From positions 640,001 to 704,000 of the forward strand of contig CBDANS010000006.1 of the NCBI GenBank assembly GCA_965197745.1: DNA of 64,000 nt. Reading direction: 5' to 3'. Below are positions 14,270 through 62,793 of this stretch, piece after piece (position 1 is the stretch's first letter; every line of letters starts with the position of its first letter). This stretch comes from Opitutales bacterium (lineage in GTDB: Bacteria > Verrucomicrobiota > Verrucomicrobiia > Opitutales > PNEW01). The translations under genes and the position numbers were made by a program. The notes beneath the pieces were generated by a model. It searched no databases. It saw only the letters and a list, made by a program, of their open reading frames with translations, and was not told the DNA's origin.

Positions 14270-14403
14270 GACGATTGTGGATGTCGGTCTTCGCCCTCGG
14301 TACGGAATGCGGAATGAGGGATGTCGCGCTTAGCTCTCGGTACGGATTACGGATTGTGTCTAACGGTTATCGAATATAATTCTTATCTTCGTAATTATCC
14401 TCT

Positions 14404-14558
14404 TGTCATTGCGAGGAGCAATGCGACGAAGCTACCGAGCTCAGCGACATCTTCCACTCCAGGAGGATGTCGGTCACGTATTGACAGCCCCCTGGAATAG
14501 AAGATGTCGCGTTTCACGCTCGGTAGCCACAGTCAGCTACGCTTCCTTCGCGATGACA
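14404..14558. repeat. MITE-like palindromic element (TGTCATTGCGAGGAG...CTTCGCGATGACA)
   Basis: Terminal inverted repeats; related copy at 62547-62793 with shared interior. Confidence 0.75.
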
Positions 14559-14663
14559 AATGGAATCAATCCGCAATTGAGACGGCCTGATTGACACCCA
14601 GAGCGCGGAAGTAATATTCTGATCTGTTCTGAATTGTGCATGTAGCACACTAAACGGGTGCGC

Positions 14664-15716
14664 TCAGGCATATTGCACGAGAATCTCGACATGATCCAGC
14701 CGCGGAGTCACGCAAATCGCCGGGTTGAGGCATTCCACGTCGATCTTCAATTCATTCTGGCCGAGCCTCAAGACATCGGGCGGCACGGGATAAGTCATGC
14801 GGGTAAAATTGTCCATGATAAACTGCGCCCGAGTGCTCCGCGCATCTCCCGGCAATAGCCTTCCGTTAACTGAGACCTCATACTCATCCGGCTGCGTGAA
14901 GTTGTGTACCTGCAAGTGCAAGGTGACTCTCGGCGACAGCGCCCGTTGCCGCGCCGCTTCCAGATCATCGGCAATCCCGAACGGGATGACGTGTGACCCA
15001 ACCGACAGCTCCACAGGGAGCACGATCGCGTCGATACCCCGGTAGATCCTGTGGTTCTGTCCCGATTCAGCGCCCTGGTTTGGCGCGCGCGGATGTGAAT
15101 CGAGATCGTAATCGCAGTTGAGAAAGGCAATTGCGCCCGGATCGTGGATCTCGCGCAGCACACGATAATAATCCGGGTGCAGATCGTCGTACCAGACCGT
15201 CCCTGTTCGCTCGGATTGCGGTGGCGTATCTTTTCCGTGTCCGTAGAGCAAGTGCCCGTAGTTGAACAGTTGCAGACCATGCGCTCCCCGGTGATACATT
15301 AACTTGGCCCAGGCGCGGGTCACTTCCGTCCTTCTCCAGTGGTTCGCGCAGGGGAAAATCCAGCAGTCATGCCCTTCGACCAGTTCCAACCACGGACCGA
15401 GGTCCATATCGAATAACATGTATCCGGCGCCAGGCGCAACGGCGTCGACCAACCCCTCATTTACCCACGTGCGCACGTCCATTCCTCGTTGCCAGCACGT
15501 GTCGATATCTGCCACGACACGCACATGCAGGTACATGGGCCGACCACGTTCGCTGCTCACGCGGTCCAGAATCTCGCGCGTCTGCCGTACCATGTCCGTG
15601 ATAAGCGCAGCGTTTTCCGCCTTGCCGAACTCTTTGAAGTAGCGAGGATCGCGGTCGAAATAAAGCGCGACGCCGTCGTTGTCCCATCGGGTGATGAACT
15701 CCTCGATGATGGCCAT
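14664..15716 (-). pseudogene. 5'-truncated TIM-barrel glycoside-hydrolase-like (GHL10/DUF187-like) protein
   Basis: Motifs WDNDGVALYFDRDPRYF and GAHGLQLFN; N-terminus replaced by the IS3 left end at 15717. Confidence 0.6.
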
Positions 15717-17034
15717 TGGTCGTGACCACGAAAACTGGTACACTTGAAAAGTTAGTCTGGGTAACCTAGAAAGGACTCAGACAATGAAAGGCAAAAGATA
15801 CACAACTGAAGAGAAAATACGGATGCTGCGGCAGGCGGACAAAGGGAAAACGATCCTGGAAGCATGCCGCGAGAACAACATTAGCGAACAGACTTTCCAC
15901 CGCTGGAAGCGTGAGTTTGGGATGATTGATGTCGACCAGGCCAAGCGGATGAAGGAACTCTTTGAAGGAGAACGCGCGGTTAAAACGGATGCTGGCGGAC
16001 AAGATGCTGGGGATAGAGATCCTGCAGGAGACCCTCGAAAAAAAACTGTAAGCCCTGGGCACAAGCGGCAAGTGGCAGAGAGACTTGTGGCTCGGGGCCA
16101 GTGTTCGATGCGAGCGGGGTGCCGGTACTTTCGGCTGCACCGTTCCACCTATGCGTATAAGGCGAAGCATCCGGATGCCTGGTTAATGAAACTGAAGGCG
16201 GCAGTAAGGCGGTTATCACGGCAATATGCCAGGTGGGGCTATCCGAAGATCACGAAGCTGTTGAAAGACGAAGGCTGGGAGGTGGGTAAACGTCTCGTGC
16301 AAGGTCTACGACGCGAACTGGGCTTGGCGATCCCCCAACGCAAGCCAAGACGTCGGGGCAGGGGTGTTTCCACCGGGCTGCCGACCAAGGCCGAACATCC
16401 CGGCCATGTTTGGACCTGGGATTTTATCCACGATAAGACGGTCCGCGGTGGCAGTTTAAAAATGTTGACCGTGCTCGATGAGTACACCCGCGAGTGTCGA
16501 GTGATCCATGTTGATCGCCATATCAATGCGGAAACGGTGCGCGGTATCATGCAAAAACTGCTTGCCCGTCATGGGCCGCCACAATATATTCGCAGTGACA
16601 ACGGTTCCGTTCCGAGGAGCGAAGCGACGACATGCGAAGCCATTCATTGAAAAGGAATTGAGAGCCTGGCTAACTGCGATGAAAATCAAAACCCTCTATA
16701 TCGAACCAGGAAGCCCTTGGCAGAACGGATACATCGAATCGTTGCATGCCCGTTTTCGCGAGGAGTGTTTAAACCGTGAACAGCTATGGACTTTGACCGA
16801 AGCCCGCGTGGTGATCGAGGACTGGCGCTGGCTTTACAATAATGTCCGACCCCACCGCAGCCTCGGCAATATCACCCCACGGTGCTTCGCTGAAGACATT
16901 AATACCGAAGGCTTGGGCTCCATTCGGGCTACGCCCTCATTGCGCCCAAGCCTTGACTTCCTCTACCAACTTAACTTCAACATTAACCTCTCCAGACTAA
17001 CTCTCTCGGTGGACCAGTTTACGTAACCCGATCA
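15717..17034 (+). mobile_element. IS3-family element (type A), transposase disrupted
   Basis: Imperfect IRs TGGTCGTGACCACGAAAACTGG / CCAGTTTACGTAACCCGATCA. orfA HTH starts at 15784; A8 frameshift site 16038-16045; DDE motifs WTWDF, SDNG, NGYIES. Extra T near 15961; insert at 16610-16642. Confidence 0.9.
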
Positions 17035-17086
17035 GTACTAATATAGGTTGGGACTGATTTTAAAATAAAGTTAATCAATACTGAAA

Positions 17087-17887
17087 ATGATTATCAAAAG
17101 AAAGAATTTCGTATTCGCATCAATAACTTGGACGATCTCCGGTTTATGTCTTTTTACTAATGTTTTTTGTAATCAATTATCAGGAAGCTATGATAAGAAC
17201 TTTGAACCCTTTTTTAATTCTAAAATTAGTGAAATATCAGATTTGAATAAAAAGGAGGAATTAGAGAATCTTTTCAGTCAAATTGTATCATTACGTGACA
17301 TGCTTCGTGGCCGCGGCATAAATGATCGTGGCACTAGCATAAATAATGAATATGAAGATTTAACAGTTAGGCTTTCAGAAAAATTGAAGCAAGCAGTTAG
17401 GCAAACGGATATCCGAGCTGCATCGACATTTCTTTTTGACACAGTCGAAGATAATTACAACCGCCAGGCAGGACTATCTGCACTTCGTGAATATCAAGAA
17501 TTTAAAATCACTGATATTGAGTTACTCAGTAAGTTATATGTATCTTTAGACTACGAGGACAAAAATCACCACTCGGATAGACGATGGGTTGTACCTTCTA
17601 TTGCAAGAGCCCAACTATCACGTTGGATAGAATACGTGCTTGGTTTAGGAAATGTAGACTCTGCTCCAGCAAAAGAGAAGTATTCTAATCCAAGAAAGTG
17701 GTTAATAAGTAACTTGGAATTAGCGAAACAGTTAGATCAGAATAAAGATTTTTTACCTCTTATTGAGAGTAGCCTAGAGGCTGTACAAATAAACTATGGT
17801 ATTATCAATTCTGTTAAAATAAAAAAAGATAATGTTGATCGGACCCCGTTTACTGTACCAGAGCCCGTGTTAGATCCATCAGGATAG
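17087..17887 (+). pseudogene. Hypothetical exported protein, 3'-truncated by an IS3 end
   Basis: AT-rich ORF with N-terminal hydrophobic segment; last ~17 codons come from IS3 terminal sequence starting at 17836. Confidence 0.55.
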
Positions 17888-18800
17888 TAAGAGTTTTGAT
17901 TTGCTTAGATATGGCTCTCTGGACGTATTCGGCCGGAGGCCGATAGCCCAGAGAACTGTGGAGTCTTTGAGTATTACAATCAAGGCGTCCGGCTTCAGAT
18001 TTTCTATCACATTGGAGTGACCCTAAAAATCGCATCATTTTCAGAGAGAAGTTATGGGGATAGACAGTAAGCTCAATGAAAAGAAAAAGAGAGCCAACAA
18101 ACAGATTATAGCAATACTGGGGCGAGCAGATACAGGAAAGACGGTAGAGGAAGTCTGCTGTGGCAAACAAGGTTAGAGAAAAGATCTTACACTGATTGAA
18201 TCGGGAGTTGATGATGATCGATGGGGACCAGGCCAAGCGGATGATGGATTGGGAAGGGAAAACACACTTGAAGCGAATCCTAACGGATACGATGCCTGGT
18301 GCGGAGATTGTACAAGAGGCGCTGGGCACAAGCAAGAAGCGGTTGAAAAGTTTGTGTCTCGGGATCGCTGTTCGATGCGTGGGGGGGTCAATATTTTCGT
18401 TTTTACCGCTCTGCCTATTCCTATAAGGGGAAGTATCCTTATGCTTGGTTAACAAAGCTGAAAGCAGCGGTGAGATGTTTGTCACGACAATACACTGGAG
18501 ATAAGGCTACATCAAGATCACGAAGCTGTTGCAGGAGGAGGGGGGCGTTAAGGAACCGATGGTGCATGGGCTGCGCTGTCAACTGGGCTTGGCGATTGCG
18601 CTCCATAGACCGAAACATTGATGCAGGGGCACTTCCACTGGCTTGCCAACTGCGACCGAGCATCCCAGCCATCGTCCTTAGTTGGGACTTTATCCACGAC
18701 AAAACGATTCGCGGGGAGCGATCCAAAATAGCTGGCTATCCATAATGAATATACGCGTGAGGTTCTGCTTATCCACGTCGAGCGTCTCATTACCACCATG
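17836..18800. mobile_element. Degenerate IS3 remnants (inverted right end followed by a decayed left half)
   Basis: Minus-strand [12 protein letters not shown] matches 31212..32501; 18013 onward resembles the left end and orfA of the other IS3 copies; WDFIHDKT fragment. Confidence 0.75.
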
Positions 18801-19239
18801 AGCGTGCGATCATGCAAAAGCAGATCGACACAGTCACGGGGCTCCATGCTATTATAGCAGCGACAACTCAACGAGCGATAGCGAGAATAACAAACAGATC
18901 TATTGAAGTATTGTACTTGTTGCAACTTGATCTGACAGACACTGCTTGATCAAATCACAACTCGGTCAGGCAAAAACATTTATAGTTTTCTTCTCAACTT
19001 CTAATCAAATAATAAGTTATCGTCGTGGAGTGCCCCAAAAAAATCCACTCGAAAATTCTTGGCCGATTCCTGGCTGAAGATCAGCATAAAAGTATGATTC
19101 CTGCCCATTCCTGCCAAACATTTTGAGGCAAGGTCAGGAAATTAGAGGAAAATATAAATTATTATTGGGTCGTTATTTAAGTGTAACTAATTTTTAATAA
19201 GTATCTTATAAGGCATTATTGAGTCCCGTTCATAGTCGG

Positions 19240-19535
19240 TTTCATCGAGTCGTTTCACACCGTTTACGCGATGAGTGTTTGAACCGTGAAGTGTTGCTCA
19301 GCGTAGCTGAAGCCCAAGTTGTAATCGAACAATGGCGTCATAATTACAATAATGAACATCCCCACACTCGTTTAGGCTTTAAAAGCCCACTAGAGTTTGT
19401 CAGATTCCTTTCCGATCTTGGCCTCGTCGGGCTAGGCCCTCACTTCGCCAAGATCTCTCATATACATCAATCCTAAAACCATTAACACCCCGATACTCTC
19501 TCACTTAAAAATTGGTACGAATAACGGGGTCCGAC
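19240..19535 (+). mobile_element. IS3 (type B) 3' remnant with right IR
   Basis: RLRDECLNRE...HPHTRLG; ends GGTACGAATAACGGGGTCCGACCA, nearly identical to the end at 23871. Confidence 0.8.
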
Positions 19536-20449
19536 CACTTACCCTCCACAATCATCAAGTCCTCAATGGCGGAGAGAATAACATCCAATTCTCGATGATC
19601 GATTGTATCTAATGGCGATTGAAAATAATTTCGGATCGTCGCACTTCGAATAACGCCGCGACGTCTGAGTACTTCCTTGTAAAGCTGCAACGGGTAGAGA
19701 GATTGCATATTCAGGAGAGGAAGCAAGCGATCGAATAAACGCCGTGCTTTTGCAGCATCACCGCGCTCATAAGTATTCCATATCGCTGCATGCACATCCG
19801 GAATATCGCAAGCCGGCATCGTCCCGCACACTCCCCTGGCCATCTCGTTCATCATGTGCCGGCCGGCCAATCCACCGAATATCCCGTGCAGCTTTTCTTT
19901 ACGCTGAACAAGCTCGAAAAGTTTCGAAACCACATGCGTGCAGAAAAGAGATTCCTCCTTGATATAATGAATATGTTCAATCTCATCGATGAGACGCGCC
20001 ATAAATTCCGGACTCATCGGTGAGCCGACGAAGATGGAGTTTTGAACAATAACGGGAACTTCGGTTGCTGCACCAATGGCTTCAAAATAGCGATATATCC
20101 CCTCACTGTGCAGAGGCTTGATTGGTGGTGACATTGCCATGATCCCATCGGCGCCCAATCCGTTCATCGCCTTCGTCAACTCTGCGGCTGCGTGCGCAGA
20201 CACTCCGCTAGCGACGAGGACTACGGGGATTCGTCCATTCGCCTGTTCACAAACAATGCGGCTGACAAGTAGTCGCTCTTCATCCGAGAGTGCGAAAAAT
20301 TCACTGACATTCGCAGGAACTACCAACCCATGCGCACCCACATCAATGCTAAAATTAACAACCGAGCGAAGAGACTCTTCATCAATACTGCCATCTTCAT
20401 AAAAAGGTGCGACAAGAATAACGTATACACCGCGAAATTTATTTCCCAT
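19505..20449 (-). CDS. Dihydrodipicolinate synthase (DapA/NanA) family aldolase-like protein
   Basis: GAHGLVVPANVSEFFALS, YIKEES (Schiff-base Lys); extreme 3' end overlaps the IS3 IR. Confidence 0.9.
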   Translation of the reverse strand: MGNKFRGVYVILVAPFYEDGSIDEESLRSVVNFSIDVGAHGLVVPANVSEFFALSDEERLLVSRIVCEQANGRIPVVLVASGVSAHAAAELTKAMNGLGADGIMAMSPPIKPLHSEGIYRYFEAIGAATEVPVIVQNSIFVGSPMSPEFMARLIDEIEHIHYIKEESLFCTHVVSKLFELVQRKEKLHGIFGGLAGRHMMNEMARGVCGTMPACDIPDVHAAIWNTYERGDAAKARRLFDRLLPLLNMQSLYPLQLYKEVLRRRGVIRSATIRNYFQSPLDTIDHRELDVILSAIEDLMIVEGKWSDPVIRTNF

Positions 20450-20493
20450 ATTATGGACGAGTCAAAAGATCAAAACGTCAAAAAGAATTAACC

Positions 20494-21534
20494 ATGTACA
20501 CTTTAGAAGAAGATCTCCAAGAGATAATTGAACAAAGCCGCGTTGAGCTTGGGTCTTCTGGGATTATAGCTCGTGTGGAGACTGATGACTTTTTCTGGTG
20601 TGGGACATCCGGAATATTAACTTCCACCGACATTGATAGAGGATTCTACATTTGCAGTCTTAGTAAAACATTCACCGCAATTCTGGTAATGAAGCTTCTT
20701 GAAAATGGTAAACTAAAATTAGATGACCGAATTTCAATTTATCTCAATAAGATTAGCCCGTTTCAGAATATTACTATTAGGCAATTGCTAAATCACTCAC
20801 ATCGTATTCCAGATTATACAAGCTTTGATAACTACGAAGATGAAGTAAATAAATCTCCACATAATCCATGGTCGCGGGAATACATCTCTTCAAGAGCGAA
20901 AAAGATCGGCCTTCTGGAATCTTCGGACGGGAACTGGTCGTACTCAAATACTGGATACATGTATTTATATCAAATAATTGAAATTGTCACTGGGCAAAGT
21001 TATGTCGATGCTATTGACGAACTGGTTATCAAGCCACTCGGGTTTCAATACACGTATGTTGCTACTAAGATCGATAAAGGCAAAATTCTGATTCCAGCCT
21101 ATGACCAATATTTCTCTAAATATGAAGGAGACATACGTTGTCAATATCACCCTGACTGGTGTGCTACGGGTGTACTTGTATCAAATGTTAAGGAAGTATG
21201 TTAACTTTACAGAAAACTGTTAGAGGGTTCCATCCTATCAGAAGAGTCAATGCAAGAAGTATTAGAAGGAGTCGAAACACCTTACTGGGTTGGAGGACGA
21301 GAAGCGTTATACAATGGCAAGTTGAGTTATGGCCTTGGCATAAGAATCTGTAGAAAATTCCCTCTTGGTCCCTTTTTTGGTCATGGAGGAGATTGCCCAG
21401 GCTATTCGATTTGGGCTGGATATATAGATATTTCTGGCGGTAAAAATATAACGAGCTGTGTAGTCTGTAATAGCAGCCTTAAATTTCCACCAGCCGAAGT
21501 TTGGATGAAACTGATCAATCGTGTAGTGGAGTAA
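20494..21534 (+). pseudogene. Serine hydrolase (beta-lactamase/DD-peptidase family) with in-frame stop at 21202-21204
   Basis: SLSK (SxxK), YSN and HGG motifs; the two ORFs are in the same frame. Confidence 0.8.
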
Positions 21535-21643
21535 TAGAGGGAGTGTAAATAGAAATCATATTTTCTTTAACTCTCTCTCAATTATTGAAGCAATACTTTC
21601 AGGTGTTGCTGTAATAGCGACCACCAGTGCATTTTGGGGCTCC

Positions 21644-22158
21644 TCAAGAGTATTGTTTGTTGAGCTCCCAGCCGCCTTTTGTCTTTAGCGTAACCCTGAT
21701 ATTTCCATGTATATCCGTTCGAAAGACTTTGTCTCCCTGTTTCGATCCAGCGCTGCCGGTTTCGTAGAACTCCAAGGCCTTCTCTTCCGGATGACCAAAC
21801 GAGTTGTCTCCGACAGACACGATCGTAACGTCAGGACTGATCTTACGCAGATGATCTAGATAGTAATGTTTCTTGTCTCTTGGATCGTCGAAAAAGGTCA
21901 ACGATCCGTGATGGCTGGCGAGTAGCAGTGACGAACTGAGCGATTCTACATCGTAACTCCTCACTATACTGTACCTCCACGCAACTGCACTTGAATCGCC
22001 GGTGAGCATCATGCTTCCAAGAACTGCACCGTTCGCAGGTCGCCGTTGTTCTACTTTTATAACGATGCTTTGGGCATTCGCATCTGTATCCAAGGCATCA
22101 TTCTTGGAGTTCATTATTCTGAGTCGCGTGTTGCCGAAATCCCAGCGTTTCATTGCCT
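21644..22158 (-). pseudogene. C-terminal fragment of ComEC/Rec2-type MBL-fold hydrolase
   Basis: LTGD, SHHGS, SVGDNSFGHP, RTDIHG; 5' part replaced by an IS3 end at 22159. Confidence 0.75.
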
Positions 22159-22345
22159 CTGGAGTGACCCCAAAAAATCGTATCACTTACCGTGAGAGGT
22201 TATCGGGATAAACAGATAACCTCAATGAAAAGAAAAAGATACAGAACAGATCATAGCAATACTGCGGCAAGCCGATACAGGCAAGACGGGACAGGAAGTC
22301 TGCCGTGGTAACAACCTAAGCGAACCGCCCTTCTATCGGTGTGGT
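22159..22345 (+). mobile_element. IS3 (type B) left-end/orfA fragment
   Basis: Near copy of 22523-22710. Confidence 0.8.
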
Positions 22346-22359
22346 AAAAAGTCAATCAA

Positions 22360-22510
22360 TTAGGGGTTACCTATAAGTGTGCTTACAGGATGGGTAAACA
22401 AATACGGAAGCTACTTAATGATAATATTGATCCTCTCAATAGTGTAGTTGAACTTGATGAAACCTATTAAGGGGCTAAAGAAAGCAACAAACATTAGCAT
22501 AAAAGGACCC
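22360..22510 (+). pseudogene. IS1595 transposase remnant
   Basis: Translates LGVTYKCAYRMGKQIRKLL...VVELDETY*G, paralleling the HTH and EADE region of 10949..11803. Confidence 0.65.
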
Positions 22511-22522
22511 GGTATACACAAG

Positions 22523-23871
22523 TGGTGTGACTCCTAAAAATCGTATCATTTACCGAGAGAGGTTATGGGGATAAACAGATAACCTCAATGAAAAGAAAAC
22601 GATATACAACAGAACAGATCATAGCAATACTCCGGCAGACCGATACGGGCAAGACGGGACAGGAAGTCTGCCGCGGCAACAACCTAAGTGAACAGACCTT
22701 CTATCGCTGGGGCAAAAAGTATGGCAACTTGGAGCTGGCCGATGCTCTAGCGATTTAAAGAACTGGAAAAAGAGAATACCGAGTTGAAGAAGCTGCTCGC
22801 TGATCAAATGCTCAAGAATCAGGTGATGGAGGAAACGCTGTCAAAAAAGTGGTGAGCCCCAAGCAGAAGAAGCTAGCAGTAAAAGGTGCAGTTGAGAAAG
22901 GGCTGTGCTCGTTTTAGAGGGCTTTTGCCTATCTCAGTCTCAGAGTTTTGGTCAACGTTCAGCTACAGGTCTAAGCAGGCCAGCAGGAAAGCTCAGCGGT
23001 TGGCCGAGCGGATTGTAACCCTGTCCTGGGAACATCCCCGCTACGGTTACCGGCGCATCCGTGCCTTGCTGGTGAAGGAAGGTTGGGCGGCGAGCAGGAA
23101 ATTTGTACAGGCAGTGCGACGTTCTTCGGGCTTACAGGTAAAGCCACCGAAAAAGCGTAGACACCGTCAAGGAGTCTCTACAGGGTCGCCTACTAAAGCA
23201 ACCGGTCGCAATCACGTTTGGTCCTGGGACTTTGTCCATGATCGCACAGACAATGGCGGTCCATTAAAGATGATGACTCTGATCGATGAATATACGCGTG
23301 AATGTCTGGATATCCGGGTAGCTCGTCAACTCCCCTCATCGGATGTCCTCTCTGTGCTTAGCGAGGCCATTGAAAAGGAGGGAGCTCCCAGCTATATCCG
23401 CAGTGATAATGGCAGTGTTCCGAGGAGCGAAGCGACGACATGCGAAGCCATTTATCGCTCATCAAGTACAGCGGTGGTTGCGTGAAAAAAACATCAAGGC
23501 GATATATATCGATCCGGGCAGTCCCTGGCAAAACGGTTTCATCGAGTCGTTTCACAACCGCTTACGCGATGTACCGAGGAACGTAGTGACGACATAGCGA
23601 AGCGCTCATGTTTGAACCGTGAAGTGTTGCTCAGCGTGGCTGAAGCGCAAGTGCTAATAGAACAATGGCGTCAGACCTATAACAATGAACATCCCCACAG
23701 TCGATTAGGCTTTCAAAGCCCACAAGAGTTTGTCAGATTCCTTTCAGATCTTGGCCGCGTTCGGGCTACGCCCTCACTGCTCCATGATCTCTCATATACA
23801 TCAATCCTAAAACCATTAACACCCGGTAGTTCTCTCACTTAATAATTGGTACGAATAACGGGGTCCGATCA
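22523..23871 (+). mobile_element. IS3-family element (type B), transposase inactivated
   Basis: TG...CA ends; orfA from 22588 with a frameshift; A6G site near 22843; WSWDF, SDNG, NGFIESF; inserts at 23418-23450 and 23572-23608. Confidence 0.9.
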
Positions 23872-23999
23872 CTCTCACTATTCACTTCTAATTATCGTCC
23901 TTTTCCTGAACTTTCTTCACCGACATCAGCCACAGATGGTTGTTGACAAGATTTGGGGATCGGTAACGAACGCCATCCAGGAAATGATTCGGGCGTCGG

Positions 24000-25097: not shown

Positions 25098-25144
25098 ATG
25101 ATTTGTTAGAAAGGTTGGATTTATCGATTTTTCGATATGTTACG

Positions 25145-25730
25145 TGACCTGCACCCTTATGCTGTACCAGAGTCAGTTTTAAATCCAGCAGGGTGGCAAG
25201 GGTTTTGATTTGCTTAGATATGGCGCTCTGGGCGTATTCGGCCGAAGGCCGATAGCCCAAAGAACAGTGTCGTCTTTGAATATTATAATCAAACCTCCAG
25301 GATTCAAGTTACTCTTTCACTTCAGCTAGCGTACAAAATATCTTGGGGTTAAGAAGTTCATCTTGTAAGCGTCCATTGAAGCTCTCAATATAACCATTTT
25401 CTACGGGTCTGCCTGGCTGGATGAAATACAGATGGATACCTTGGGTGTAAGCCCACTCATCCAATACTTTGCCGGCAAACTCGGGGTCATTATCGACGGT
25501 AATGGTTTGAGCAAGACCGATTCCTTCAGCGGCTTTCGCCAGTGCAACGGTAACTTTACGTCCACCGATGGAGGTATCGGCCAGAAGCAGTGAGCAAGCT
25601 CGGGTATCCTGACCGACAACGTTGAAAATGCGCAAAGGGGTGGCCGTTAGCCAACTGACCTGCTCCCGATTACTGTACCAGAGCCAGTGTTAGATCCGGC
25701 AGAGTGGTAAGGTTTTTGATTTGCTTATCT
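25145..25730 (-). mobile_element. IS3 (type C) remnants with two right ends
   Basis: TGACCTGC... IRs at 25145 and ~25656; TITVDNDPEF...NGYIESFNG similar to 31603..32487. Confidence 0.8.
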
Positions 25731-25744
25731 TAGCCTCAGTGGGA

Positions 25745-26273: not shown

Positions 26274-26372
26274 CGTGTTTAAGGACAGCCTCCAATATGG
26301 CGCCCGGTTCCCTGTGTTCCAGCCCTATCACAACGGGGTTTTATCGCAGTTGCACAGGACCAGGAACGCCCT

Positions 26373-26891: not shown

Positions 26892-26926
26892 ACTTTTGAC
26901 AACAGAATTGAGAGGGATTTACCTTA

Positions 26927-48481: not shown

Positions 48482-48499
48482 ATGCTACCGATCTACTCC

Positions 48500-52310: not shown

Positions 52311-52390
52311 GAGCGCTGGTGGAATGTTGCCATTTTAAAAACCGAATCCACCCCACACCCGATTCGGCATGACCGCCATACGGTAATAAT

Positions 52391-53317: not shown

Positions 53318-53464
53318 CCCTTGTGCCTTTTCAGTCAGGAGTTTATTTTTGGGTGCCTGTCATATATTTCTCTGCTCAGGCTTTAAAGTTTCGACGAAGC
53401 TTTCGATTTTTTCACACGATCAACTTATACTTTAACCAATAAATCAATTGAAGAAACCAAGTTC

Positions 53465-55354: not shown

Positions 55355-55458
55355 TGACCGCGGATTACACGGATACGACGGATTAATTTGGATAGGATAT
55401 CGTACTGAATACGAAGCCTGACATCTCCCAAATCGAAAATCGACATTCGGCAATGGCA

Positions 55459-57378
55459 TCACTCCGATTCCATGGGCATCGGTTTGAATTGGCATGCTTC
55501 GACGAATACATCAAAGAAGTCGGGTGTTGTTTCCAGTTCTATATGTTCGATCCCTTTGACTAAATTTTCTATTGATTGACGCTTGCTCTTCGAGAGAAGC
55601 ACCTCTCTGGCCCCTTGCACTGCTGCGTTGCCAACTTTGACAATACGCTCTTCAGCAACGGGAGCTAAAAAGCCGATTTCAATAGCGTTGCGCACATTTA
55701 CATAGTTGGCAAACCCACCCGCAAGGTAAAGTTTGCCCACGTCGCGGGGGTTAATCCCGTAATTACGCAAGACGATAAATTGCCCGCAGTAATTGGCCGC
55801 TTTTGCTTGAGCCAGGTTGCTGGCATCTTCCCGGGAAAAGGTGATACCATAATCAGGGACAATTGCCCACTCGTATTGTTTTTTGTCCGTGAAAACACCC
55901 TTTGGCGTCATCAATTCGTGGCGACGGAATTCAGCCAGGAGGTCGATCAAACCGGACCCGCAAATTCCCTGGGGTTCAATACCTCCGATAGTTTTGTATT
56001 CCATATGGTTCTTATTCCATCGCATGGATTCAATAGCGCCTTCGTAGCCGGGCATCCCGTACTTAATACCTCCCCCTTCAAAGGCAGGTCCGGCAGGACA
56101 GGAAGCTGAGACCAGCCGTCCTTTACCTCCCACCACCACTTCGGTGTTAGTTCCTACGTCAACGAGCATAATGACTCCCTCCTGAGATTCTATATCGATA
56201 GACACCAGGTCGGCTGCCACATCTCCGCCGACATGACTGGCGATTAAAGGCATCCCGTAGACTCTGGCTTTAGCGTTTGCCCGAAGTCCCACTTGCCGCG
56301 TGCTTGTAATAAGGGAGGTAGTCTGGCGTTCTCCAGCCAGGTATTCATGTTCAGTAGTAGACTTATAAGGTTTTTGTCCAATGCCCTGTACGTCCAGCTT
56401 GAAGAAAATATCACGCATTGTGGAATTCCCAACCACTACGACTTCATAAATTTCCTGGCGAACAAAGTTCAGATGCTTACACATCTCCATAATTTCGTGA
56501 TTCAGCGTATTAACTACTGCTTTTTGTAATTCCCCACGGAATTCCCCGTCGTAAGAAATTCTATACATAACATCGCTGCCACCAAAACGCTGTGGATTCT
56601 CAAAGGAACTGACATGAACGCTCTTGCCGGTTTCCAGATCGACAAGATCCATTACTACCGTCGTCGTTCCAAGATCGACTGCCAATCCGAAGAGGTGCCC
56701 GCGATAGCTGTCGATCAATTCATCTTCATAATAAATTTCGTCACCTTTACGGGTGACTATGGGATCCAGGGAGACCGTTTTCTCCTGGGTGACGGTGAGG
56801 ATTTTGGGCTCACGACGTAGCGGCGCAAACTGTATGGGGACATCCGCATTTTCAACCGTCGCCTGGCAGGCAAGACGGTAGTTGTCACGTAAAAACGATT
56901 CCGCTTCAGTACGAGGCTGCAACGCTTCCATACCTTGATTAATCTCCACAACACATTCATGACAGTGACCGGTACGCCCACAGGAAGTCGGGACTTGAAC
57001 CGTAAGTTCATCGGCATAGTCGAATATAGTCTTGCCAGTCATCAGTTTACTTTTTCTCCCGTCATGGGTAATACTCCCTTTCCCGTAATTGGCATCCTCG
57101 CTCCTGGAATTACTTTCACCAATGTCCTCTTGGGTCCCCTCGGTTTCCCAGGCACTGCGATAGTCCAGCTTGTCATCTCCACCACATATCTGCAGTCCCC
57201 CTTTGACACGCGGTTTGAGTTGGTTTCGGCACCCAAATTTAGCCGTACACTCATCATAGCGGTTTTTATAAGGACACCGATAGGTAGATTGTTCATCGGC
57301 ATGAACCATCATGCTCGAAAACAACTCTGTAATCTTGTCCAGGCGCTTCTGGTATTCGGCTTTATCAATCTTCTTCAT
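55459..57378 (-). CDS. ASKHA-domain [2Fe-2S] reductive activator of corrinoid proteins (RACo/RamA-like, DUF4445)
   Basis: CGRTGHCHEC...RLAC ferredoxin; AVDLGTTT, DVGTNTE, AGPAFEG, GICGSG, LAGGF; extra Cys-rich N-terminus. Confidence 0.92.
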   Translation of the reverse strand: MKKIDKAEYQKRLDKITELFSSMMVHADEQSTYRCPYKNRYDECTAKFGCRNQLKPRVKGGLQICGGDDKLDYRSAWETEGTQEDIGESNSRSEDANYGKGSITHDGRKSKLMTGKTIFDYADELTVQVPTSCGRTGHCHECVVEINQGMEALQPRTEAESFLRDNYRLACQATVENADVPIQFAPLRREPKILTVTQEKTVSLDPIVTRKGDEIYYEDELIDSYRGHLFGLAVDLGTTTVVMDLVDLETGKSVHVSSFENPQRFGGSDVMYRISYDGEFRGELQKAVVNTLNHEIMEMCKHLNFVRQEIYEVVVVGNSTMRDIFFKLDVQGIGQKPYKSTTEHEYLAGERQTTSLITSTRQVGLRANAKARVYGMPLIASHVGGDVAADLVSIDIESQEGVIMLVDVGTNTEVVVGGKGRLVSASCPAGPAFEGGGIKYGMPGYEGAIESMRWNKNHMEYKTIGGIEPQGICGSGLIDLLAEFRRHELMTPKGVFTDKKQYEWAIVPDYGITFSREDASNLAQAKAANYCGQFIVLRNYGINPRDVGKLYLAGGFANYVNVRNAIEIGFLAPVAEERIVKVGNAAVQGAREVLLSKSKRQSIENLVKGIEHIELETTPDFFDVFVEACQFKPMPMESE

Positions 57379-57438
57379 CTCGAGTTCAATTGATGGAATC
57401 CTTCCACTACAGAAGGGTAATTTAAAGTTGAACCAATA

Positions 57439-58203
57439 TCAGACTTTACTTTCTTCTTTAAGCTCTTCAAGCAGACGTTTGGCCAATTCTACGCATGCCA
57501 CGGCATCTTTGCCTGTCCCATCAGCGCCCATATCATCGGCAAATTCCTGGGTAACAGAAGCACCCCCTACCATAATTTTGACGTCCTCACGAAGGTCTGC
57601 ATCGATGAAGGCTTCAATCGTCTTGCCCATGTTTGGCATGGTTGTCGTCAACAGAGCTGACATCCCCAGCAGGGGTGCATTATGCTCCTCCACGGCCTCG
57701 ATAAATTCATCTTCTGAAGTATCCACTCCCAGATCATGCACAACAAATCCTGATCCCCTCAGCATCATAATGCAGAGATTCTTTCCAATATCATGTAAGT
57801 CTCCTTTTACTGTTCCCATGACTGCGACGCCCACCGGCTCGATCCCTGAGGCAGAGAGTATCGGTTCGATATAAGCCATGCCCGCTTTCATTGCCCGCGC
57901 GCAAGCCAGAACCTCAGGGACGAAAATAAAGTTTTCACGAAATTTAATGCCGACGATACCCATTCCGGCAATGAGGCCATCGTCCATAATCTCCAGCGCT
58001 TCGGTACCCGAGTCCAATGCCTCCTTTGTTAATTTGTCTACCGTCAGGTGAGCCCCATCAATGAGCGAGGCTGAAATTTCCTGCATTTCAGATGAAGTTT
58101 TAGCGAAAGCACGAATAAGGTGATCTCGTTCATCAGGGCGCTCGATATATTCTTCGATCTCATCTCTGATAAATTCATTTTTAATATCCGCTATTTCTGC
58201 CAT
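57439..58203 (-). CDS. Corrinoid (B12)-binding methyltransferase protein (MtaC/MttC-like)
   Basis: Cap domain FVPEVL; DLHDIG (DxHxxG); SALLTTT; MVGGA. Confidence 0.95.
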   Translation of the reverse strand: MAEIADIKNEFIRDEIEEYIERPDERDHLIRAFAKTSSEMQEISASLIDGAHLTVDKLTKEALDSGTEALEIMDDGLIAGMGIVGIKFRENFIFVPEVLACARAMKAGMAYIEPILSASGIEPVGVAVMGTVKGDLHDIGKNLCIMMLRGSGFVVHDLGVDTSEDEFIEAVEEHNAPLLGMSALLTTTMPNMGKTIEAFIDADLREDVKIMVGGASVTQEFADDMGADGTGKDAVACVELAKRLLEELKEESKV

Positions 58204-58219
58204 TCTTTACTTCAGTCTA

Positions 58220-59269
58220 TTAATGCTCGGTCACATGGCTCTTGTGCCAGTCACACACAGCATGGGGTATTGCTTTCAAGTTTTCGATAGAGGTCTGTAG
58301 CGGGATAGCACACTCCGGCCCCACCAGCTGTATGCCGACATCGAGGTTTTTATAAACCTCTTCGCAGACTACATCCGGTCCCCTGGCAAACAGGGTTTCA
58401 GGATTGTTGATGTTTCCGACAAGAGATATACGATCTTTCATTACTTCCTTGGATTCTCCCGGTTGGTTTTTTGAATCATAATGAAAAGCAGCGAAACCCG
58501 TTTGTGCGATGTACTCCATCCTATCCACGGTGCGCCCGCAAATGTGCATAATAAGGGGAATAGGTATCCGCTCGACCATCTCGATATGCAGATCACGCAG
58601 GAACCGCTTGTAATACTCACCACTGACGAGATCACCGGTTGCGTGGTCTGGGAGGGTCAGCGCATCGGCTCCCGCTTCTATCTGGGCAATCCCAAACTGC
58701 ACGGTCGATTCCTTCATCCTGTCGAGCGCGAGCTTTGTCTTACCCGGGTCATCCAATGACATGAGGAGGAAAGGTTCCACGCCGAAACAGTGGTATCCCA
58801 AGGACCATGGCCCCATCGTCTTTCCAATTATTGCTACATCATCGCCGTACTCTTTTTTTAGAATTTTAATAGCATCGAGAACACACTTGGTATCCTGATG
58901 GGTTAAAAAATCGGATGGGATTTTAATGTCATCGACATCCTCCCAGATAGGTTCCTTCATTTTAACCGTTGGCCAGTTATCTTTTTGTTCCCATTGTATT
59001 TTACAACCCAGTGCCGAAGACTCCTGGATAATGGTAAAAACCGGCATGATACTATCAAAGCCCAGCTCCGTGTAACTGGTAGCAGCCAAACGGGCCATTA
59101 ACTCGGGGTTTCTATTGGCGTCCGGAAATGGCGCGTCCACCAGGTCCATAAGTTCCACGGTGGCAACGGATGTCGGATTACATACCGGGGTGCGATCTAC
59201 CGGTTTTCTAGCGAGCGCTGCGAGAACCCGTTCCTTACCTGTCATCGGGCCGACAGTTTGTGTTTCCAT
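58220..59269 (-). CDS. MtaA/CmuA-family methylcobamide methyltransferase (UROD fold)
   Basis: MTGKERVLAAL; Zn ligands HIC and GPEC; LVGNIN. Confidence 0.88.
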   Translation of the reverse strand: METQTVGPMTGKERVLAALARKPVDRTPVCNPTSVATVELMDLVDAPFPDANRNPELMARLAATSYTELGFDSIMPVFTIIQESSALGCKIQWEQKDNWPTVKMKEPIWEDVDDIKIPSDFLTHQDTKCVLDAIKILKKEYGDDVAIIGKTMGPWSLGYHCFGVEPFLLMSLDDPGKTKLALDRMKESTVQFGIAQIEAGADALTLPDHATGDLVSGEYYKRFLRDLHIEMVERIPIPLIMHICGRTVDRMEYIAQTGFAAFHYDSKNQPGESKEVMKDRISLVGNINNPETLFARGPDVVCEEVYKNLDVGIQLVGPECAIPLQTSIENLKAIPHAVCDWHKSHVTEH

Positions 59270-59356
59270 ATCTATTCTCCTTAATTGTTAGCTCTATTTT
59301 ATTTATTGGAACAGGGTGCTCCGTCATCGTGGGTGGGTAATTAAATTCTACAAACA

Positions 59357-59992
59357 TTATCTTTGTTGGCTCGGTGCTGATAAAACACCGCGTGATGCAG
59401 CCATATCCTGCTCACGAATAACGGCTCGCACATTCGGTGCGCGAACAAGCAGCAGGCCGACCAACGCATCATGGGATTGTCCACAGGGAAAATTAACTTC
59501 ATCCAGCCTTCCTTTCACTTCACTCATCTGCCCCAGTTTCATTAAACCCCCGGCAATGAATGAAGCGCGCTTCTCCTTGTCTTTCCCCTCCCCCTCAGCC
59601 GTAACCTGATATAAGCCGTCACCGTGACTGAGGACTATGATATCAAGACGGGTTTTTTTGTCCAGAATCTTGAAGGGGCGTGGCTCGACATCAGCATTAG
59701 AAGCAAGTTTACAGGCTTCGAGAAACACGCGCTTACAAGCCAGTTCATGCTCATCCCAGCAGGGAAAATGAAGTAACCCGTCTGCGGTTAACTCCATACC
59801 GCCCAGGATTTGCATCGCGTTCACGACAGCGGCAATGCGATCCTGCGCCCCTTCATGTTGGCTGTATGTATAAACCTGAAACGCGGGCCCTTTATCCTGC
59901 TGCTGGCAATAGAGGGCGATCGATATATCTTGAAAATGGGAATCCATTGGGACCAATTCAAGTCGCCTGCCAATATCTACTGTTTTACCCAT
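59357..59992 (-). CDS. Conserved hypothetical protein in the corrinoid operon
   Basis: Internal repeated FPCxxxH motif (HFPCWDEH, NFPCGQSH). Confidence 0.75.
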   Translation of the reverse strand: MGKTVDIGRRLELVPMDSHFQDISIALYCQQQDKGPAFQVYTYSQHEGAQDRIAAVVNAMQILGGMELTADGLLHFPCWDEHELACKRVFLEACKLASNADVEPRPFKILDKKTRLDIIVLSHGDGLYQVTAEGEGKDKEKRASFIAGGLMKLGQMSEVKGRLDEVNFPCGQSHDALVGLLLVRAPNVRAVIREQDMAASRGVLSAPSQQR

Positions 59993-60058
59993 GGTCCTTA
60001 CTTATTTGAAAATTCTAACCGTTCTTGAATATGCCACCATTTAAAATTTTATCAATGG

Positions 60059-60334
60059 TTAAACTTGCACGTCTCTATCGTCATATTTGTTTTCAAGTTC
60101 CTGCAAAAGGTTATTTAATACCTCCTCGCCCTCGCCGGGGCGTTCCTCTTTTTCCGTCCATTGCCACTGGTTCAGGTATTCGTCACTCTCAGTTAGTCCC
60201 TCCGCCATCGCGATGCGATCAATTTCAACCTGAAAGCGCTCGGGCATCGGAAGTGAAATCGGTTTTTTACCTTTAAAGACTCTAACTTGTGCCGGGATAT
60301 CGCGCCAATATAGAACTTGATAGGTGGTAGTCAT
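60059..60334 (-). CDS. 'Virulence factor' (CvfA-like) small protein
   Basis: YWRDIPAQV...RFQ.EIDR.AM..G...DEYL..W. Confidence 0.8.
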   Translation of the reverse strand: MTTTYQVLYWRDIPAQVRVFKGKKPISLPMPERFQVEIDRIAMAEGLTESDEYLNQWQWTEKEERPGEGEEVLNNLLQELENKYDDRDVQV

Positions 60335-60349
60335 GCGATAACAGCAATT

Positions 60350-61357
60350 TTACGTCACGATATTAATGCTTTCATTCAACGCCTTACGATAGGCCCTGAT
60401 ATGGTCACGGCCCGTTCCACAACATCCTCCAACAATATAGGCACCTGCTTCGAGAAGCTCCGGTAAGTATTGAACCATCTCTTCGGGAGTCTGTGAATAA
60501 TAGGTCTTGTGATTTTTATCCAACCGCGCCTTACCTGCATTGGGATAGGACATCATTTTTTTTGGTTGAATACCTTTTTTCTCCATCGCCGCGCTCAGTT
60601 GTTTTATTCCGGTTATGGCATATGGCATTCCGGTGTGCTCATCGCGTCTGGATTCGGCACCGCAGTTCAGACCCAATATCTGTACGGCATCTAAAAGATT
60701 ATAACCATTGGAATATTCACCGGCAGATAATATCTCCAATAAATCTTCAGCCGAATGCCCCCAGTCCGTTCGATAGATAACAATACCGGTACTTTTATCT
60801 TTAGTATACTTATAAGTCAGATTAACGGCAATCGGGAGACCGAATTGCCTGACAACATCAGCGGCGATGGCAGCCTCATTGGCAGAGAACATCGTTTCAA
60901 TGCAGAAAAAATCTACCCCTCCTTCAGCCATTACCGTCGCAACTTTTTCATGCGCATCTCTAACCACCTGGTTAGGTATACCGAAATCAGTTCCGCCATC
61001 AGCTTCAATAGCCCCGGGTGAAGGGCCTATTGAACCCGCGAGGTAAATCTCTTTTCCACTTTTTTCAATTGCCGCCTTAGCGTGCTCGACCGCAAGTCTA
61101 ACCAGTTTTTCAGACTCTGAGGCGTCTTTTCCCGCCATCTCAAGATGAGGTATGGACGCCACAAAAGTGTTGGTTCCTATCACTTCAGCTCCCGCTTTTA
61201 TATATTCTAAATGGATGTCGACAACATCATCAGGATGCAATTCGTTGGCCAGGGTACTGTTCGTTAATTCTATCCCTCTGGCAAAAAGTTCGGAACCAAA
61301 ACCCCCATCGTAAATCAGGGGTCTCGGATCTTCTAATCTTTCCAGGAAAGTTTTCAT
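60350..61357 (-). CDS. Homocysteine S-methyltransferase domain protein (stand-alone MetH N-terminal domain)
   Basis: YDGGFG, TNTF, IETM, GLNC, PNAG, GGCCGT. Confidence 0.92.
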   Translation of the reverse strand: MKTFLERLEDPRPLIYDGGFGSELFARGIELTNSTLANELHPDDVVDIHLEYIKAGAEVIGTNTFVASIPHLEMAGKDASESEKLVRLAVEHAKAAIEKSGKEIYLAGSIGPSPGAIEADGGTDFGIPNQVVRDAHEKVATVMAEGGVDFFCIETMFSANEAAIAADVVRQFGLPIAVNLTYKYTKDKSTGIVIYRTDWGHSAEDLLEILSAGEYSNGYNLLDAVQILGLNCGAESRRDEHTGMPYAITGIKQLSAAMEKKGIQPKKMMSYPNAGKARLDKNHKTYYSQTPEEMVQYLPELLEAGAYIVGGCCGTGRDHIRAYRKALNESINIVT

Positions 61358-61529
61358 AAAATAATTAAGGAGTAGAATCACCGCAGTTCAGGGCGGGAGT
61401 AACCACTTTCCTCATTTTTTACTGTGCATAGAAGCCCTGACATAAGATGTCAATGGCTTATGATTGGGCGTTAAAACTTCGACTGCGCCTAATCTTAATC
61501 AATAATGTGTAATGAAATTTACAACCCAA

Positions 61530-61762
61530 GGTGGAACGCGCTGTCCCTAGCGCGTTTGATTATTCCGTAATTGAAGAAGCGTGCTAGGGACAGCCCGCTC
61601 CACCATGATAATGTAATTAATAACAGAGGACGTAGAGGCAGACCCGTCTTCATCTTTAATCTACGACGTGTCAAACGTAGACGAAGATTATTGCATGAGA
61701 CCCAGCAAGCTATATTTAAATATTGAATAACCGATAACGCGGTGAGTAACGCACGTCCCTCC
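61530..61762. repeat. REP-like palindrome pair and related repeats
   Basis: 61530-61556 and 61576-61604 form an inverted pair matching the 8.8 kb and 48.9 kb copies. Confidence 0.75.
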
Positions 61763-61783
61763 ATCATTCTGGAATAATTTATA

Positions 61784-62464
61784 ATGAAACCCATTAACTA
61801 CGTAAAAGATCGGGCTCATGACCTGATCGAGAGCTGTGAAGAAAAGCTCGAATCAGGAGTCATTGACGAGGAAACCTGGCACCGTGAGATGGCCGCAGTC
61901 TTTACCCCATCCTACCTCGCCGGTGATAACCCGCGCAGTCAATCCGGCCACAGTGGTGACGAAGCACGCTGGACTCAGGCCAGAGGATTGATCGTCGATG
62001 CGATTGACAGGGACGGGACCTTTTTAGATGTAGGCTGTGCGAATGGTTACCTCATGGAGTCGATACATCGCTGGAGCCTGGATAAAGGCTATAAAATAGA
62101 AACCCATGGGGTCGACATCTCCCCTGAGCTCGCTGACTTCGCCAGGGAGCGATTGCCCCATTGGGCAGAGAGAATTCACACCGGAAACGCACTTTATTGG
62201 AATCCCCCAGTGCCATTCACATTCGTTCGGACGGGATTGAATTATGTACCGCGACAGCGCCAAAAAGAGTATGTTCAAATATTACTCGATTGCGCAGTAT
62301 CACCCGGAGGTCGATTGATCATTGGCACCATTAATGAAGAAAAAGAGATTCATTACATCGAAGATCAATTGACACGTTGGGGCTTCACCATAAATGGCCG
62401 ATCCAATCGCCCCCATAGTGACAAGCGTATCGAATATAAGATCGTCTGGATAGATAATCCTTAA
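61784..62464 (+). CDS. Class I SAM-dependent methyltransferase
   Basis: FLDVGCANG, GVDIS, PGGRLI. Confidence 0.88.
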   Translation: MKPINYVKDRAHDLIESCEEKLESGVIDEETWHREMAAVFTPSYLAGDNPRSQSGHSGDEARWTQARGLIVDAIDRDGTFLDVGCANGYLMESIHRWSLDKGYKIETHGVDISPELADFARERLPHWAERIHTGNALYWNPPVPFTFVRTGLNYVPRQRQKEYVQILLDCAVSPGGRLIIGTINEEKEIHYIEDQLTRWGFTINGRSNRPHSDKRIEYKIVWIDNP

Positions 62465-62546
62465 ATTGTGTCGCCCCACTGGGGCATAGAGAATGGGTTA
62501 TAAATCCCTTACCGAAATCTTCGTCTTCGCTTGCCTCCCTTTCCCT

Positions 62547-62793
62547 TATTGTCATTGCGAGGAGTTAAGCGACGAAGCAATCCAGGGGAATGTCCGTTAC
62601 GTAATCACAGTCCCTGGACGTAATGTTTCAATCAGAAGTTCGATTGCCGTTCTAAAGTATATATAGAGCTACTCATGTTTCTTAGCGGTGATTTGTATCC
62701 GTAACCACAATGACTATTCGCCTGGATTGGAAGATGTCGGACTTCGTCCTCGGTAGCCGCGGTCGGCTGGTAGCCTTCCTCGCAATGACAATA
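62547..62793. repeat. MITE-like palindromic element
   Basis: 17-bp TIR TATTGTCATTGCGAGGA / TCCTCGCAATGACAATA; related to 14404-14558. Confidence 0.8.

Follow-up and report, generated by a model that had tools for sequence, protein, structure and literature searches.

What are the short sequence blocks that recur inside other repeats in a 64-kb stretch of an Opitutales genome? The stretch (the window hereafter: 64,000 nucleotides (nt), positions 640,001 to 704,000 of contig CBDANS010000006.1, assembly GCA_965197745.1) holds eight copies of a motif, here called family A, in which constant boxes enclose a changing centre. An earlier note, made from the letters of the window, had taken them for micro-insertions nested in repeats and in genes of IS3-type insertion sequences (IS). 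Our analysis supports a genuine micro-insertion family with a covarying centre, nested in repeats and IS3 genes, for which filled and empty sites exist. With a probability of roughly 0.6, we regard family A as a lineage-specific set of non-autonomous, ultra-short insertion modules of these marine bacteria, for which we propose a course of entry, passive carriage, selection and spread with IS elements.

All eight copies were located in the window at the coordinates and on the strands given before, and constant flanks around a changing centre were found as described (Table 1). The pattern CCGAG-N3-13-CGACAT matches the window nine times, against a mean of 0.36 and a maximum of 1 in 100 dinucleotide-preserving shuffles; the ninth match is probably due to chance. 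The reported contexts hold as well: two copies lie in heptamer-like repeats, 12 nt past the stop codon of a gene, three occupy one equivalent position in the arms of miniature inverted-repeat transposable elements (MITEs), with an empty arm near 62578, and three lie within two IS3-type genes. Single contigs of the DNA-type runs X1 (possibly the source sample of the assembly) and X3, which belong to two studies, span 14093-14690 with 1 and 5 other letters, respectively. Because these contigs reproduce the four copies at 14281-14526, the latter are no assembly artefact. The family also occurs in several independent assemblies, and an assembly or sequencing error as the source of the inserts is next to impossible.

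A comparison of many copies gives the order T(A/T)CCGAG, variable hairpin centre, CGACA(T/C), and a tail ending in CA, most often CNNNCA. The core of 19-25 bp recognized in the earlier note is present, but the true unit is longer, adding a tail of at least 6 nt. The basic form measures 24-28 nt, while composite forms of 33-44 nt carry a second small hairpin. The three IS copies of the window go beyond the earlier description in this respect: they are composite, measure 33 or 37 nt and have another hairpin, GCGAAGC, in the tail. Terminal inverted repeats are absent: the head T(A/T)CCGAG is not an inverted copy of the tail. The centres have lengths of 5, 6, 7, 9, 10 or 16 nt and form, together with the flanking G and C, a stem of 2-7 bp, which is retained in centres of 5, 7, 9 and 16 nt. 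In the window, clean 3-bp stems closed by a G-C pair are seen at 62734 (GAC-GAA-GTC) and 14504 (CGT-GAA-ACG), 2-bp stems at 16609 and 23417 (GC-GAA-GC) and at 23571 (AC-GTA-GT), and imperfect stems at 14281 (GGCGAAGAC), 14321 (AGCTAAGCG) and 14432 (CTCAG).

Stem types include GGC/GCC, GAC/GTC, AGC/GCT, CGT/ACG, GTT/AAC and TGT/ACA. Among the distinct 9-nt centres of this genome, 15 of 25 are fully paired, compared with 9.4 when the 3' halves of the centres are shuffled, and a count of 15 was reached by 4 of 2000 shuffles; 140 kb of the relative G032 contain 11 fully paired centres out of 13, versus 7.1 in shuffles. The triloops are GNA in 29 of 42 cases, and this preference is strand-specific. 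Along this line, the mini-hairpin motifs GCGNAGC, GCGNNAGC and CCGNAGG occur on the element strand of 28 of 83 elements and on the complement of none (0/83). According to PMC13037366, the 'mini-hairpin DNA' d(GCGNAGC) melts at 70-76 °C when made of DNA, and at much lower temperatures when made of RNA. The strand-specific loops and motifs lend partial support to the earlier idea of a structure in single-stranded DNA.

Filled and empty homologous sites, whose alignment the earlier note had proposed, are available at eight target types and reveal one precise rule at all of them: the element follows G or C, substitutes for the dinucleotide A(A/G) that comes next, and leaves no target duplication. 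Five targets are located in IS3-type elements, namely site 1 (in isA and isB), sites 2, 3 and 4, and site 5 (33 empty and 7 filled copies). The others are a second MITE type (ATAGCCAC^AA^AAGGCAC; carets delimit the replaced bases or mark the junction), the heptamer array CCCTG^AA^CCCTGAA, and T-loop copies of transfer RNA (tRNA) genes, GGTTCG^AA^TCC. Only one orientation relative to the target occurs, and the four bases ahead of the insert vary (AGTG, TCCG, GATG, TGGC, TTAC, CCAC, CCTG, TTCG). Since the empty IS sites encode the canonical IS3-type residues E, E, Q and E (in SDNGSEF, LIDEYT, SPWQNG and RLRDECLNRE), we take the empty state as ancestral. An excision with constant footprint was rejected, as the dinucleotide at the empty sites follows the canonical codons: sites 1 and 2 have AG, sites 3 and 4 have AA. 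In the main MITE arm, four subtypes are found, each with empty (GC^AATCC) and filled (GC^...CTTCCATTCC) versions. Between G032 and G060, no clean filled/empty pair of orthologous sites was obtained; the 20-kb query belonged to a large family of paralogous genes in which the repeat-rich spacers are rearranged.

Table 1. Family-A copies, their hosts and related sites in the window (positions count from the first letter of the window; core positions in brackets).
Feature	Position	Strand	Context and remarks
Family-A element TACCGAG-GGCGAAGAC-CGACAT-tail	14275..14302 (core 14281-14303)	-	heptamer-like repeats; stem imperfect; covered by X1 and X3 DNA contigs
Family-A element, centre AGCTAAGCG, tail CCCTCA	14315..14342 (core 14321-14343)	-	heptamer-like repeats; stem imperfect
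Family-A short form, centre CTCAG, tail CTTCCA	14433..14456 (core 14432-14450)	+	MITE left arm; stem imperfect
Family-A element, centre CGTGAAACG	14498..14525 (core 14504-14526)	-	right arm of the MITE that holds 14433..14456
IS3-type element isA	15717..17034	+	HTH_Tnp_1, HTH_21, rve/rve_3; site-1 insert breaks transposase frame
Site-1 composite insert, 33 nt, TTCCGAG...GCGAAGCCA	16610..16642 (core 16609-16633)	+	inside isA
Pattern match, probably chance	17413..17429	+	T(A/T) prefix absent, tail absent, within open frame of 266 amino acids
IS3-type element isB2	22523..23871	+	HTH_Tnp_1, HTH_21, rve; sites 1 and 2 filled, sites 3 and 4 empty
Site-1 insert, identical 33 nt	23418..23450 (core 23417-23441)	+	inside isB2
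Empty site-4 target CCCTGGC^AA^AACGG	23520..23521	+	codon CAA of SPWQNG; 44 nt here in other isB copies
Site-2 composite insert, 37 nt, TACCGAG-GAACGTAGTGA-CGACAT-AGCGAAGCGCTCA	23572..23608 (core 23571-23595)	+	inside isB2
MITE, inverted ends CCCTTATTGTCATTGCGAGGA	62543..62797	.	left arm empty at GAAGC^AATCC (62578/62579)
Family-A element, centre GACGAAGTC, tail CTTCCA	62728..62755 (core 62734-62756)	-	right arm of MITE 62543..62797

A strict form of the pattern matches this genome 236 times: 124 matches are of IS type, 36 lie in MITE arms, and 76 are of other kinds. About 15 of these 76 are chance-like; the rest map to heptamer-like arrays, the second MITE type, IS site 5 and tRNA remnants. 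The search across genome and relatives that had been suggested gave 0-481 strict matches in related Opitutales, namely 147 and 217 in the same family (another genus), 481, 73, 38, 12, 8 and 5 in another family, and 1 and 0 elsewhere, with 0-2 matches to a reversed control pattern in related genomes. Four of these genomes, with 481, 73, 12 and 8 matches, belong to a single genus (g39). The family-A boxes are conserved across two families of the order. A looser, order-wide pattern was discarded in favour of the strict one, as it matched coding DNA of GC-rich genomes. In a scan of one genome per species (185,579 species), TACCGAG-N5-9-CGACATCTTCCA matched at least 69 stretches, with about 20 chance hits estimated for the whole collection on the assumption of equal base frequencies. 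Among the matches listed, 55 fall in eight Opitutales, Puniceicoccaceae or Opitutaceae assemblies and the other 14 are single hits in unrelated taxa; clusters are confined to the Opitutales-type assemblies, and cyanobacteria are not represented. A 31-mer of the site-1 insert was found in one of 401 sampled Verrucomicrobiota genomes, which is the genome under study itself (the sample left out G032, G060 and G126, carriers of the first 24 nt of this variant or of a near form), and it had no match in the JGI metagenome contigs.

The elements avoid genes and accumulate in repeats. Among 83 non-IS elements, 11 fall in a crude coding mask that spans 82% of the genome, and those within long open frames are located in the first 8-36 codons, upstream of likely starts. 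That the earlier note saw none in ordinary genes conforms to the expectation under purifying selection. Enrichment, which the note had proposed to test for mobile DNA, is seen in repeats: a flank that is repeated at least three times accompanies 44 of the 83 elements, compared with 86 of 400 random non-coding positions. Of 21 elements with seemingly unique flanks, most still lie, judged by eye, within short CAATCG-like arrays. The working tRNA-Asn and tRNA-Gln genes keep the empty T-loop, and adjoining partial copies of their 3' ends are filled in it.

The tRNA-Asn gene is followed by two tandem remnants (C6:355392-355720) and the tRNA-Gln gene by one (C5:236400-236620). Their T-loops contain a family-A composite insert plus an extra piece of 13 nt (ATGAGAAYC...), which perhaps represents a second micro-insert family. 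The same insert subtype occurs in G126 in a repeat resembling the D-loop of tRNA-Ser (L109). Palindromes similar to repetitive extragenic palindromes (REPs), CTGTAGGAGCGG...CCGCTCCTACAG, host the site-4-type composite in G126 (L110-L118) and G107 (L120); we take them to resemble the REPs of Pseudomonas.

The predominance of repeats as hosts admits another explanation, in which the modules are not mobile by themselves but arise as by-products of template switching or recombination among hairpin-rich repeats. Correction of quasi-palindromes would then produce the seemingly compensatory stems, and the 'insertions' would be patches exchanged between repeats. Nearly all copies indeed lie within repeats, tandem modules are found at repeat ends in G038, and a MITE end of the same build, GCGAGGA-hairpin-GACGAAGC, shares hairpin types and 18 nt with family A and the site-1 insert. 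However, eight unrelated targets obey the sharp junction rule, and among them are coding motifs and a tRNA T-loop, none of which is similar to any donor flank. Moreover, the boxes are conserved between two families of the order, and the orientation to the target is fixed. We consider such a by-product origin quite improbable.

The IS3-type elements present a picture of their own. Both elements of the window contain HTH_Tnp_1, HTH_21 and rve domains; the rve profile breaks off precisely at site 1 (position 76 of 102), with rve_3 after it. At site 1, the insert takes the place of AG in the GAG codon of SDNGSEF, which results in a frame shift; at site 2, AG is likewise lost, in RLRD^E^CLNRE, and the insert brings an in-frame TAG with it. 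By eye, the inserts at sites 3 and 4 both add 42 nt, the former with a TGA, the latter in frame and without stop codon. The site-5 insert is antisense and located at the A-run between orfA and orfB; the other four are in sense direction and hit the most conserved motifs of the DDE domain. Each site exclusively holds its own variant, and the same four IS-site variants are present in another genus. Among 77 copies of at least 1100 nt, scored in the order sites 3, 1, 4, 2 as empty (E) or filled (F), 30 are EFEE, 23 FFEE, 5 FFFF, 4 EEEE (insert-free) and 2 EEFF, and 13 are mixed or unclear. Both orfA (100 amino acids) and orfB (354 amino acids) are intact in two of the four insert-free copies. At its ends, the filled isA of the window differs from these two intact copies in 1 and 3 positions, which makes a mobilisation of isA in trans plausible. 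The site-4 composite exists as a non-coding repeat within the REP-like palindromes of G126 and G107; hence, the IS inserts came from outside the IS.

Spread and conservation of these inserts raise the question of whether the IS variants are more than passengers. Just one synonymous substitution in 260 codons separates a certain filled copy from an empty one. Between lineages, 29-33 of the 33 nt of the site-1 insert are identical (88-100%), in contrast to 54-70% in the adjacent 150-nt flanks, and the IS lineages concerned show a synonymous divergence (dS) of 0.8-1.5 with a ratio of nonsynonymous to synonymous divergence (dN/dS) of 0.10-0.15 on both sides of site 1. To judge from these sequences, the pattern points to a site-faithful spread that does not drag the flanks along, or to a strong constraint on the insert. 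Consequently, homing-like or selected interrupters have to be considered, i.e., IS variants that copy themselves into cognate empty IS3-type sites or are maintained by selection, and that would brake transposition under the control of either the IS or the host. The confinement of each variant to its own site, the choice of conserved DDE motifs in sense direction at four sites, filled and empty states at near-zero divergence in at least three lineages, the mosaic states and the shared variants of another genus fit this view. On the other hand, no endonuclease, reverse transcriptase or guide turned up, in an enzyme-family search that covered Y1_Tnp, and the head box is invariant across targets, giving no sign of guiding by base pairing. 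Recombination between IS copies, evident from an isB/isA chimera, could spread the inserts too, and horizontal IS exchange between co-resident genomes could explain the sharing across genera. Overall, homing or selection for interruption appears unlikely.

Further observations concern individual IS copies. The chimeric IS at C7:1673277-1674708 consists of isB up to site 1, about 90 nt that are isA-like, and isB again, and constitutes direct evidence of recombination between the IS families. In the insert-free isA copies at C4:136859-138146 and C7:1901266-1902555, orfA and orfB form one frame of 415 amino acids through small length changes near the frameshift region; those at C7:406740-408026 and C7:1352654-1353939 keep the usual -1 arrangement.

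Insert-free site 1 is also seen in RNA. Contigs of the RNA library X17, a metatranscriptome, join 16609 to 16643 and 23417 to 23451 with AG in between, i.e., the canonical insert-free form, at depths of 22 and 16.4 and with 75 and 73 letters on the shorter side. The DNA runs X1 and X3 contain no insert-free contig; the read check suggested earlier confirms the inserts at 14281-14526 in the DNA contigs of two studies and adds insert-free site-1 forms from RNA contigs. For X17 and X19, the RNA-covered parts of the stretch are informative. X17 stems from another study and differs from the window in unique genes by 5 of 358 and 7 of 282 letters (~1.4-2.5%). Its joins, present at both site-1 copies and without counterpart in X1 and X3, together with the many near-identical interrupted copies, would be expected if IS inserts were removed from the message or skipped by the ribosome, such that interrupted genes still make transposase. 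However, the insert-free form cannot arise by any single excision, since the longest shared prefix and suffix omit AG; splicing or bypass as a simple reading was rejected. In addition, matching take-off and landing codons were not found on inspection. Empty DNA copies exist in this genome, contigs drop rare variants, and with an approximately 98%-identical population as the source of X17, empty copies at the DNA level are simpler. Removal at the message level is therefore very unlikely; the simplest reading of X17 is that a sister population has empty DNA copies and that intact messages survive better.

For an ultra-short insertion module, an enzyme supplied from elsewhere may be postulated, and a search for HUH genes had been recommended. 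Matches to Y1_Tnp (PF01797) number 1, 6, 4, 46 and 7 in five element-rich genomes. They do not track the number of elements, and neither the Y1 gene of the genome under study nor the multi-copy Y1 unit of G038 has elements at its ends. This search, limited to Y1_Tnp, gave no clear support to such an enzyme. In G038 (L024-L028), a unit of about 1335 nt encodes a Y1_Tnp-domain protein of about 330 amino acids and is present in at least 12 copies; its inverted ends, AAATGGGGACGGACCT, are other than family-A elements. Some of these Y1 units are interrupted by a repeat of about 200 nt that ends in a family-A module.

The proposed course of events would be the following. The boxes and the strand-specific GNA mini-hairpin would be recognised on single-stranded DNA by a putative enzyme supplied in trans, and the hairpin would be free to change provided that pairing persists. 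After entry, the modules would mostly be passengers of MITE arms, heptamer arrays, REP-like palindromes, dead tRNA 3' ends and IS3-type elements, and insertions in working genes would be purged by selection. Each of the five IS3-type transposase sites would have received its own variant, most of them breaking the reading frame. The broken IS copies would have multiplied by means of transposase from insert-free copies with nearly the same ends, and the inserts may have spread from one IS copy or lineage to another in a site-faithful way, sparing the flanks.

Several observations weigh against this course of events. Free transposition into loose targets does not predict that every IS site has its own variant and that the insert is better conserved than its flanks. 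In the main MITE arm the junction count is off by one (AATCC becomes ...CTTCCATTCC), and to our knowledge the replacement of two target bases is unlike the chemistry of IS200/IS605, REP-associated tyrosine transposases (RAYTs) or DDE enzymes. Stem covariation is modest and may be inflated by related copies. For seven copies of the window, nearest-neighbour DNA folding gave energies no better than those of shuffles (z from -1.27 to +1.13), so that the case for the hairpin rests on covariation and motif content; a replication-strand bias was absent, with ratios of 28:23 and 12:20. An insert-free copy of isB is missing from the assembly, which is 92% complete, and a mobilisation of isB in trans is consequently unsupported here. 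As for the enzyme, none was identified by the Y1_Tnp profile search. Five element-poor genomes have 7, 13, 5, 0 and 0 Y1_Tnp matches, G107 has 13 along with 8 elements, and the single Y1 gene of the genome under study, at C6:163380-163706, has no family-A element within 6 kb.

Among known systems, the small dispersed repeats (SDRs) of Nostocaceae reportedly lie nested in heptamer repeats and other mobile DNA and have constant flanks around a variable hairpin. The mobile SDR4, SDR5 and SDR6, with 21-27 nt, are said to have been described by Elhai et al., Genome Res 2008. SDRs are reported to measure 21-27 nt, with SDR5 inserting precisely at GCG^ATCGC, between bases 3 and 4 of GCGATCGC (PMC5861425, PMC4390886, PMC13756078); according to one article, SDRs were not found outside Nostocaceae (PMC5861425), and another gives their enzyme and function as still unknown in 2026, after 18 years (PMC13756078). 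Family A resembles them in the size of its 24-28-nt basic form, which the 236 strict matches represent, in precise insertion relative to empty homologous sites at eight target types, and in nesting within other repeats. It differs in that the 33-44-nt composites exceed the SDR range, that it takes the place of two target bases, and that transposase genes and remnants of tRNA genes are among its hosts. It also belongs to another phylum, with no cyanobacteria among the matches listed; this comparison is by description rather than consensus.

Family A shares with REPs and their inverted doublets (REPINs) that it consists of short extragenic hairpin repeats, numbers hundreds of copies that are scarce in genes, combines a conserved box with an adjacent covarying (here very short) stem, and has Y1_Tnp genes in its carrier genomes. 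Unlike REPs and REPINs, it lacks a GTAG-type head, has stems of no more than 2-4 bp, forms inverted pairs only through MITE arms, and sits inside other repeats and IS genes. The REP/REPIN-RAYT relation is not mirrored either: the Y1 gene is not flanked by elements, Y1 counts do not follow theirs, and Y1 genes also occur in element-poor genomes. IS200/IS605-derived elements have hairpins at both ends and insert 3' of a fixed tetra- or pentanucleotide without target loss, whereas the basic family-A form has one hairpin, variable preceding bases and two bases replaced. MITEs are likewise non-autonomous, multi-copy and nested, but family A has neither terminal inverted repeats nor target duplication (a dinucleotide is lost), is 5-10 times shorter, and is a passenger inside MITE arms.

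IS91 and Helitron elements are kilobase elements that encode a Rep/helicase or Y2 enzyme and insert between two bases, none of which is removed. They share with family A the absence of inverted ends and target duplication, the orientation-specific insertion at a dinucleotide, and a small hairpin that precedes the 3' end by about a dozen bases; family A is far shorter and replaces two bases, and the enzyme search covered Y1_Tnp only. Rickettsia palindromic elements and the 'byps' of yeast mitochondria are short selfish inserts inside protein-coding genes. Family A is similar to them in lying within protein-coding genes, with an in-frame, stop-free insert at site 4, and differs from them in that most inserts shift the frame or carry stops and only transposase genes are hit; the codon pair for take-off and landing of byps was not found in its inserts on inspection. 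In contrast to introns and bypass elements, the insert-free form holds AG, which single excision does not give, and no Rfam family matched anywhere in the window.

Taken by its sequence features, family A would thus belong to the SDR- or REP-like kind in a new phylum, with an unusual junction rule and an unexplained homing-like behaviour in transposase genes. The description as an undescribed kind of system in the earlier note goes too far, with SDRs reported in Nostocaceae and REP-like elements known. It is the family-A sequences that are absent from the searchable literature, where string matches proved to be unrelated primers or genes. For a DNA-tagging system, as also suggested there, we found no support.

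For mobile DNA below about 30 bases there is essentially one published precedent, whose mechanism is given as still unknown after 18 years (PMC13756078); family A would be a second, independent and richer case, with copies in the hundreds spread over several assemblies, of which some consist of a single contig, a sharp junction rule, strand-specific motifs and pairs at near-zero divergence. Copies, junction rule, mini-hairpin motifs and filled/empty pairs together make its mechanism testable. Tiny elements that disable the catalytic motifs of IS would represent a layer of conflict among mobile elements. As a doubtful extension, the IS variants may be site-specific 'homing' micro-elements of 25-44 nt that recognise conserved sequence of IS3-type transposase genes and are written in place of two bases and out again, i.e., a reversible IS switch. 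If this were true, IS would be silenced and re-armed by a class of enzymes so far without a link to mobile DNA, and the insert-free transcripts of X17 would come from cells whose DNA copies are filled or being restored. For annotation, caution is advisable: many 'frameshifted' transposase genes here carry one recurrent insert rather than random decay.

Minor observations concern the surroundings of the elements. The MITE ends (14397-14560; 62543-62797) are built like family A, with GCGAGGA, a variable hairpin (GCGAAGC, TCCCGCAACTGCGGGA, GGCTATCAGCC and others) and GACG(A/C)(A/G)GC, and 18 nt (CGAGGAGCGAAGCGACGA) are common to a MITE end and the site-1 insert; hairpin 'cassettes' seem to be interchangeable between MITE-end and family-A modules. 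In an X3 contig, the base ahead of the left-arm element is linked to the one that follows the right-arm element (14432-14526), with 93 nt skipped; this may reflect another MITE copy or a deletion between inverted elements. The gene at 12038-14269 and its paralogues form a large family of secreted Ig-like proteins, and heptamer arrays, family-A elements and MITEs accumulate right after their stop codons. The segment 17850-19480 contains pieces of additional IS3-type copies, which are degenerate and have many frame breaks, and X1 and X3 contigs reveal small length differences at 19037 and 19258.

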